This document shows positions 35,698-37,384 of a DNA stretch of 41,033 nt, piece after piece. The position numbers and the translations under genes are program-made. The notes below the pieces were generated by a model that saw only the letters and a list, made by a program, of their open reading frames with translations, did not search any database and was not told the DNA's origin. The stretch's first letter is position 1; each line of letters begins with the position of its first letter. This DNA is from a virus (Duplodnaviria > Heunggongvirae > Uroviricota > Caudoviricetes): the IMG/VR virus record IMGVR_UViG_2541047701_000006; one strand, written 5' to 3'.

Positions 35698-37384
35698 GTT
35701 TCTGCTTCTGGTAACCCTGTGCTGGCGAACAGGGTACCTTTCCTGATATCATCCCATGCCCAGGCGGTGTTCTCTCTCAGCGTTGATGACGGTGGAGTTG
35801 AAGCTGATCCTTGGGATCCAGCCACCCAGCATGAAGCTGCAAATTTTTCACATATCACTAGGACTGTGGGGCGAGTGGCAACCCACGCTATCTCCCTTCA
35901 AGATGGCTTCACCGATAATCCGACAGGACGTTAGAGATGTAAAATTACATTTTACGTTCCGGGAAAAAGTGTTAATTCTCTGTGTGTCATAACGTCAAAT
36001 ATTGCGATTCCCTTGATGGTCCCGGCTAAGGAATCGAAATTGTTGTTAATGAAGATGCGCAAGCTACGGTGCAGGGAGAAATACGAAAATTCTGAGATGT
36101 CACCGACGCAACTGATGATACGATCGAGACTCCACCATCTACTAATGCGGAAGTAAGTGTGCCAGCCGGATTCGCAGAGCATCAATCGGGCGATAACATT
36201 CACGAATGAATGAACAGTTATAAAGGGACTGGTAGGAGGTAGAAAGATCGCCAGCAAGATGAGACTCTTTCGTCAAACAATTTTTGCCTAGCTTTTACAG
36301 ACGATCTGGAAGTTGTCGTCAAATACGGTGCGCTAGCTCTTGCACGGTCAACGCCATAGGAAATATAGGCCAGTGGACGATGGGTGCCGTATACGTATCT
36401 GTAACACGCACCGGCTGAAGATGAGCCAGAAGTACGTCAACAGTCGTTGTTTCATGCAGCGTTGGCTTCCGCCCGTCCCATAAAGTCGAAAGTACCAGCC
36501 TAATGGAAGCCGTCGCAGGAACAAACAGTCCGGCTTAATGTACTGCTGGAGTATCTTCACCGGCTTCCTGCAGTAGATAAGTGTCCGGCACCGATCTTCA
36601 TCTGTCCTGAATAGCCTATGGCGTTGGCCATGAAATCGCGAGAGAACCGGAATTATTGGCCCCGACCTAAGCGTCCGGATAAGCTACGCACAAATCAGAT
36701 TGCTACACATTCTCATTGTTAAGGTCCCCTACCTCGGTTTTTCCATGCCCTTGCAATATGGTTACGCATCCGTTGACGTTATTGCTAGAATGATTACTAG
36801 CGGGACAGGCGGGGGCACTTTCTTCCTTATTAGTTGATGCTGCAATATCACCCGTTGACGCAAATCTTTCAGCGTCATCATTGAAACATCCTTTTGCGCC
36901 TTGCATCGTAACTTCCGCGTCTACAGTATAGACAGTTTCGATTATTTCACCCTCACCATCAAGGGATATGCAATATGTGACTGTCTGCTACAAACAAAAA
37001 TCAGAATATTACCCAGCGCGTAACTGGTGAATCTGAATTTCGACCGTCCTATCGGATTTACACTGAATCTATATTGCTATTAGATTTCGCGGCCCGCCAC
37101 TCGCCACGTATTATCAGCAAACTGATAAAAGTTTGTAGATAACACCTAGCTTAAAGATTTGCACGCACCTTCTTCAACGGCCCCGGACACCAAGATACGT
37201 GTAAAAACAGCGCGAGTAGCGAGTGATATAGGCAAGTGTAACCCTATAACGAGCACAGTGTATCCTGAGGAAGAAAATATCTGAACGATAAATTCACATA
37301 GTAGCCTACACGACCCGGAATCGGTAGCAGATGCTGGCATTGCCGCGATCTGACAAACTCCTGTAACGCCATTCCTTTTAGCCG
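35591..37384. other. Pin-invertible DNA segment (about 1.8 kb)
   Basis: Bounded by inverted crossover sites with the invertase gene just outside; ends encode homologous alternative fibre C-termini; core 35935-37145 has no intact ORF. Confidence 0.5.

Follow-up and report, generated by a model that had tools for sequence, protein, structure and literature searches.

A gene-free invertible segment in a deposited Escherichia coli prophage is most probably an in-silico blend of the segment's two orientations

What occupies the space between the tail-fibre gene and the DNA invertase of this prophage? The window, by which we mean the whole stretch of 41,033 nucleotides that was analysed, contains a locus of familiar design: the open reading frame (ORF) listing and a reading of 35000-38500 give Mu/e14-type baseplate genes (Pfam families Phage_Mu_Gp45, GP46, Baseplate_J and Phage_Mu_Gp48 in the public gene table), then a tail fibre, a serine invertase and a DinI-like gene. 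Serine-invertase tail-fibre switches of the Din family include the P segment of e14 with Pin, the G segment of Mu with Gin and the C segment of P1 with Cin. The parts of the locus that frame the puzzling segment, and the right end of the prophage, are as follows.

35287..35590, plus strand: constant N-terminal part of the tail fibre, real, lying outside the invertible segment and continuing through the left crossover site.
35564..35589: left 26-bp crossover site (hix/gix/pix type), CTCTCGAAAACC-TT-GGTTTAGGAGAA, central dinucleotide 35576-35577, read from the sequence.
37386..37411: right 26-bp crossover site, TTCTCCTAAACC-AA-CGTTTATGAAAA, central dinucleotide 37398-37399, read from the sequence.
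37466..38020, plus strand: serine DNA invertase (Pin/Gin/Hin family), 184 aa, intact; Pfam Resolvase PF00239 (E=1.5e-51) and HTH_7 PF02796 (E=4e-13).
38434-39531, minus strand: tyrosine integrase.
39620-40657: dusA, followed by pspG.

The inner halves of the two crossover sites are perfect inverted repeats, and we take both sites to resemble the published hix/gix consensus. The invertase is labelled pinE in relatives. At the prophage end the integrase lies 88 bp upstream of dusA, a layout that is identical in E. coli CX21, and we presume that it belongs to the known class of dusA-targeting integrases and prophages.

A segment of this kind should carry tail-fibre assembly genes, and a sequence-only reading of the locus had remarked that its core, 35935-37145, instead contains no long ORF and looks random. 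Those observations hold. No ORF in the core exceeds 101 aa (the longest is 35952-36257, minus strand), and stop-free stretches reach at most 111 codons, against 95 +/- 22 in mononucleotide shuffles. The four CTAG tetranucleotides that had been counted by eye are there, at 36288, 36333, 36785 and 36797, where base composition predicts 4.7; from the left flank, 5.6 kb long, CTAG is absent, although 21 would be expected. The translations had been called implausible, and they give 0 Pfam matches. Across the whole 41 kb window CTAG occurs 13 times, against 159 expected by base composition, and 6 of the 13 lie inside the 1.8 kb that are the subject of this report.

Where does the anomaly begin and end? 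CX21 (L001) is the closest complete genome. It is 97.8% identical to the window, constant fibre part included, as far as 35590, and 98.4-98.7% identical from 37333-37358 onward, and near-identity is absent between. Fibre residues 1 to about 101 are 100% identical to those of natural 215-aa gp53-like fibres. More broadly, complete E. coli genomes contain prophages integrated at dusA that share 98-99% identity with the flanks (33000-35590 and 37333-41033), and this homology ends at the crossover sites. The loss of near-identity to CX21 throughout, together with a fibre frame that is already broken by a stop at 35697, shows that the anomaly extends from one crossover site to the other and takes in the entire invertible segment, 35591-37384. 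The two convergent fibre stop codons that had been taken as its exact boundaries are not its edges.

Does the segment have relatives? Compared by megablast with 5426 complete E. coli genomes it has 0 matches, and no 28-mer of it is common to any of them. Homologues of the sequence as written were likewise absent from the GTDB representative genomes and IMG/VR, which were searched by exact match of one 43-mer from the segment. The database comparison that had been proposed for the core thus returns no near-identical match. What a sensitive blastn search returns is a set of long matches, equal in length in query and subject and 62-63% identical, to natural invertible segments annotated as fibre C-terminus, tfa, tfa and fibre C-terminus; these alignments are free of gaps.

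The form of these alignments is the central observation. In an offset scan every reference aligns gaplessly, in one register per strand, on both strands. If the two orientations of a reference segment are called A and B, then in each 100-nt bin of 35600-37399 between 93 and 100% of the bases equal A or B, and overall 98.7% do so (reference L002), against 44.0 +/- 1.2% in shuffles. A single orientation accounts for about 60-62% of the bases, with zero indels across 1.8 kb, and A and B share a base in only about 24% of columns. Scored in the same way, the natural segment L004, used as a control, is 97% A and 24% B. The segment therefore reads, base by base, as one orientation or the other, the source letters along 35591-37384 beginning "BAAB BBBAB BA BAA ...". 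A divergent natural cassette was considered and ruled out, since every reference matches without gaps on both strands and the bases follow one orientation or the other. Random point mutation of one orientation would also leave about 62.5% identity; it was ruled out because the "mutant" bases coincide with the inverted segment.

How is the choice between A and B made? Of the 1337 informative sites, 672 carry the base of A and 665 that of B (binomial p=0.87). The sources form 662 runs, where a fair and independent coin predicts 669.5 +/- 18.3, and the autocorrelation of the choice is about 0, within noise, at lags 1-100. No base is preferred in any of the six base pairs, and the choice at one position is independent of that at its mirror position. 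These properties bear on how a blend could have been produced. A deterministic base-priority rule, alphabetical for instance, is rejected by the roughly 50:50 outcome for every base pair; under such a rule mirror identity would be no more than about 25%. Because switches fall between adjacent informative bases and run lengths are geometric, we also reject the idea that the source changed in blocks along the path of an assembly graph or partial-order alignment, and a coverage-driven majority vote is unlikely given the lack of autocorrelation at lags 1-100. Simulated coin-flip blends contain 3.5 +/- 1.7 CTAG and a longest stop-free run of 133 +/- 27 codons, against the 111 observed, and so reproduce both the ORF lengths and the CTAG count of the core. 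We conclude, with a probability of roughly 95%, that the segment is a mosaic made in silico from the two orientations of one Pin-type invertible segment, and is the sequence of no DNA molecule:

35591..37384: 1794 bp, most probably an artefact, a per-base mosaic of two orientations that includes 35935-37145.

Could the same sequence have arisen in a cell? Heavily decayed or hypermutated tfa and fibre pseudogenes, left in a frozen invertible segment, would explain the lack of ORFs, the random-like frequency of CTAG and the roughly 62% identity to natural cassettes. Such genes would have had to diverge by 38% without a single insertion or deletion over 1.8 kb, nearly every "mutated" base would have to be that of the reverse-complemented segment (98.7%, against 44% by chance), with 662 source switches in coin-flip proportions, and all this would have to stop at the crossover sites, up to which the flanks are 98-99% identical to relatives. 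The absence of indels, the 98.7% either-orientation bases and the independent per-base coin flip exclude decay for practical purposes, and we regard it as scarcely credible. Equally hard to credit is a real quasi-palindrome of 1.8 kb in which a biological process drew each base from the segment or its inverse and destroyed the fibre and assembly genes in doing so. We know of no mutation or recombination process that yields coin-flip blending of this kind.

The in-silico mosaic can be recognized with no reference at all. A sequence S blended from X and the reverse complement of X must resemble the reverse complement of S. Compared with its own reverse complement, the segment shows 59.7-60.2% identity about the centre 36487.5, whereas other centres give 25.2 +/- 1.5%, and the coin-flip simulation predicts 0.596-0.652. 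Whatever half-length is taken between 100 and 800, no other centre in the 41 kb window stands out, and a scan of the whole window found no further mirror-symmetric stretch. The symmetry falls to background beyond about 35560-37410. Its centre is the midpoint of the crossover dinucleotides, so that the left TT (35576-77) maps to the right AA (37398-99), and such centring is the geometry of site-specific inversion. Each side of the mosaic is bounded by sequence around the central dinucleotide of the site, where the two orientations coincide: A and B agree at 35575-35590 and again at 37385-37400, in each case bar one base, which departs from the reference used. Finally, bases that match neither orientation of the reference recur as complements at mirror positions (36379/36596 and 36433/36542). 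Since these private differences are complementary at mirror positions, the two components must be one sequence and its exact reverse complement.

The symmetry also changes how the ends of the segment are to be seen. Both had been described as real fibre C-terminal coding sequence, homologous to each other. In fact both ends are as scrambled as the core, at about 60% identity to either natural orientation, and their apparent homology arises because the mosaic is mirror-symmetric: along its whole length the segment shows 60% identity to its reverse complement. As for the two stop codons, that at 35932-35934 ends the natural fibre of orientation B and was preserved by chance, and that at 37146-37148 corresponds to no natural stop, the natural ones being at 37041 and 36942.

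The absence of ORFs had raised another prospect, that a non-coding payload such as a structured RNA or regulatory DNA had replaced the assembly genes. Rfam was run over the entire window, and no family reached threshold anywhere in it. The two blended coding orientations account for the whole of the sequence, which leaves none of other origin, and a coding-type three-base periodicity persists in the core, so that a payload is excluded and we give this reading virtually no weight. By a crude Fourier measure the periodicity is 9.5 in the core, 9.8 in the de-mosaicked sequence described below and 10.0 in a flanking gene. Blending two coding sequences apparently kills the ORFs yet keeps the period-3 signal, and periodicity taken alone would misleadingly call the mosaic core coding.

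What genes lie beneath the blend? The mosaic was resolved from both mirror observations with the references as a guide; 1505 of the 1826 positions were observed and 321 (18%) imputed from the reference, so that the restored ORFs are partly reference-derived. The reconstruction fails to explain 4 of the 1826 bases. It restores ORFs of 248, 197, 146 and 132 aa with matches to Caudo_TAP and Gp53-like_C, and the number of CTAG in the segment goes from 6 to 0. The implied features are these.

35287-36033, plus strand: tail fibre in orientation A, 248 aa, intact after de-mosaicking; variable C-terminal part 35591..36033 implied.
36033..36626, plus strand: implied tail-fibre assembly protein, 197 aa, intact after de-mosaicking; Caudo_TAP PF02413, E=1e-27.
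36598..37038, minus strand: implied second, convergent tail-fibre assembly protein, 146 aa, intact after de-mosaicking; Caudo_TAP, E=5e-34.
37041-37439, minus strand: implied silent alternative fibre C-terminus (gp53-like), of which 37041..37384 lies within the mosaic.

Inversion would join the alternative C-terminus to the constant part, and the resulting fibre has 215 aa (Pfam Gp53-like_C PF21882, E=1.5e-8); the reconstructed orientation-B fibre is identical at 213 of 215 residues to a widespread natural protein (P0010). The 248-aa fibre corresponds to the 747-nt fibre gene of L004, and the 197-aa and 146-aa assembly genes match annotated tfa genes of 594 nt and 441 nt, respectively, in the natural segments L002-L006. 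At the DNA level 61 complete genomes match at least 80% of the restored length, with identity up to 98.6%; matches to the de-mosaicked segment occur in 2605 genomes. Thus, where the deposited text has no ORF longer than 101 aa and no Pfam match, the de-mosaicked segment (18% imputed) has fibres of 248 and 215 aa and two Caudo_TAP genes. Four ordinary phage genes are hidden by the blend, and the real locus is a standard cassette, presumably flipped by the adjacent serine invertase.

This outcome settles the remaining claims of the sequence-only reading. Its expectation that genes of the U/Tfa type belong in the segment was right, as the two Caudo_TAP genes attest; the gene-free core did not survive the resolution of the mosaic, from which intact tfa-like ORFs emerge. 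It had left a choice among a scrambled or replaced insert, a non-coding payload and decayed genes. Scrambling comes nearest, though it is computational and extends over the whole segment, and the other two are excluded.

Two features of the natural relative L004 (NZ_CP191552.1, E. coli CDE6306) may be recorded here. Its fibre gene homologous to the restored 248-aa fibre, at L004:3703-4449, carries the RefSeq label "integrase" (WP_170078263.1), which looks like a mis-annotation. Its invertase is a truncated pseudogene beside an S24 peptidase fragment, so that this copy of the switch is probably frozen.

When did the blend enter the record? The window is KE699099.1 of GCA_000456425.1 (E. coli HVH 28), with which it is identical over the 6.4 kb compared; on that scaffold the mosaic falls at about 1328359-1330152. 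Two proteins that the submitter deposited, now in NCBI nr, translate it exactly.

ORF 35287-35697: EQO02841.1, 136 aa, hypothetical protein G704_04339, Escherichia coli HVH 28 (4-0907367).
ORF 36703-36906, minus strand: EQO02842.1, 67 aa, G704_04340, also held as UniParc UPI000390BB3A and in MetaClust.

Each is alone in its 90% cluster. The truncated 136-aa mosaic fibre is on record for one contig only, KE699099.1, and an exact protein look-up of a third mosaic ORF, of 97 aa on the minus strand (37146-37439), returned no record. Among the 120 best fibre homologues there is no second mosaic of this kind; the short ones are natural proteins cut at contig ends, or natural variants. An independent 50:50 choice at every base is just what would result if two-base ambiguity codes were resolved at random, and one might think that a downstream pipeline had done this to IUPAC codes after deposition, leaving the GenBank record unaffected. 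The deposited proteins, however, exactly translate the mosaic bases, and concrete bases must have existed at annotation. The blend therefore predates the submitter's annotation and was not introduced downstream, and an origin after deposition is very improbable.

Blending would then have arisen while the E. coli HVH 28 genome was assembled or flattened to FASTA. In the mechanism that we propose, the two orientations would have been offered to the assembler as alternatives of equal length between the same crossover sites; they would have been laid side by side without gaps, and at each differing column one of the two bases would have been written at random. The Broad HVH genomes, HVH 28 among them, are presumably Illumina/ALLPATHS-LG assemblies, and this software probably stores bases in a 2-bit format that randomises ambiguity codes. 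A step of that kind may have done the random picking. ALLPATHS-LG encodes "local ambiguities", including sites that are truly mixed in the culture, and converts them to FASTA (Ribeiro et al. 2012, PMC3483556), and an invertible segment present in both orientations is like these in being a two-branch, equal-length ambiguity; it differs in the per-base random choice between branches, which is absent from the documentation of ALLPATHS-LG in that paper. A search of the literature on this artefact or on this assembly found nothing specific.

What supplied the two branches? With A and B blended at roughly 1:1, the sequenced culture probably contained both orientations, and the switch would then have been active; flipping by the intact Pin-like invertase is the likeliest source. 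One might suppose instead a collapsed repeat, in which the assembler blended two fixed cassette copies of opposite orientation, in a dusA prophage and a P2-like prophage for example; the segment would still be an artefact, yet it would say nothing for an active switch. The distribution of natural cassettes lends this some plausibility, since P2-like phages (L002) as well as dusA-type prophages (L004) carry the nearest one, and there are up to 7 matching places per genome. Independent copies would usually differ somewhere, however, and the components here are exact reverse complements, down to the private single-nucleotide differences at mirror positions. Moreover, the mosaic is bounded by the crossover sites of this very locus and centred exactly midway between them, and an intact invertase adjoins the segment. 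We consider a collapsed repeat unlikely, and prefer inversion within the culture.

Set beside the Din family, the locus has an adjacent invertase with Resolvase and HTH_7 domains, two inverted 26-bp sites with an AA/TT core, a constant fibre N-terminus outside a segment of about 1.8 kb and, in the partly imputed de-mosaicked sequence, alternative C-termini inside it with two convergent Caudo_TAP assembly genes. We see no biological difference; what differs is only the deposited text, in which the orientations are blended. A parallel to the artefact is the breaking of short-read contigs at invertible segments, which would have the same cause, the presence of both orientations in the culture. 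In those cases the assembler halts, whereas here the ambiguity was bridged by a blend that resembles finished DNA and was then annotated.

Related loci in public genomes supply two further observations. In many E. coli and Salmonella drafts the contig ends 35-65 aa past the fibre crossover site, leaving "partial" proteins (P0003, P0004, P0018, P0019, P0033 and P0054 in our set), and such partial fibres would fit a coexistence of the two orientations in many of the cultures sequenced. In E. coli M8, 21EVA, FY10 and 2009C-3133 the stretch from ymfQ to pinE is about 1 kb longer (about 3.96 kb against 2.9 kb). One gene there, lying amid those for fibre and Tfa, is annotated as a "LEM-3-like GIY-YIG domain-containing protein", and it may represent a nuclease gene that entered an invertible fibre cassette or its immediate surroundings.

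What follows for users of such records, and for the phage? GenBank scaffold KE699099.1 contains 1.8 kb that corresponds to no real DNA; from it two spurious hypothetical proteins have spread to nr and to clustered protein collections, and the four real genes are absent from its annotation. The reference-free signature, about 60% self-reverse-complementarity between inverted sites adjoining an invertase, could be used to screen assemblies from the same pipeline, and so prevent false novel non-coding elements and orphan genes. Local loss of CTAG avoidance is likewise a cheap flag of non-biological sequence in E. coli assemblies. For the biology of the prophage nothing is new: the gene-free core is not real, and the locus is an ordinary Pin-type host-range switch, carrying a cassette that is common in E. 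coli.
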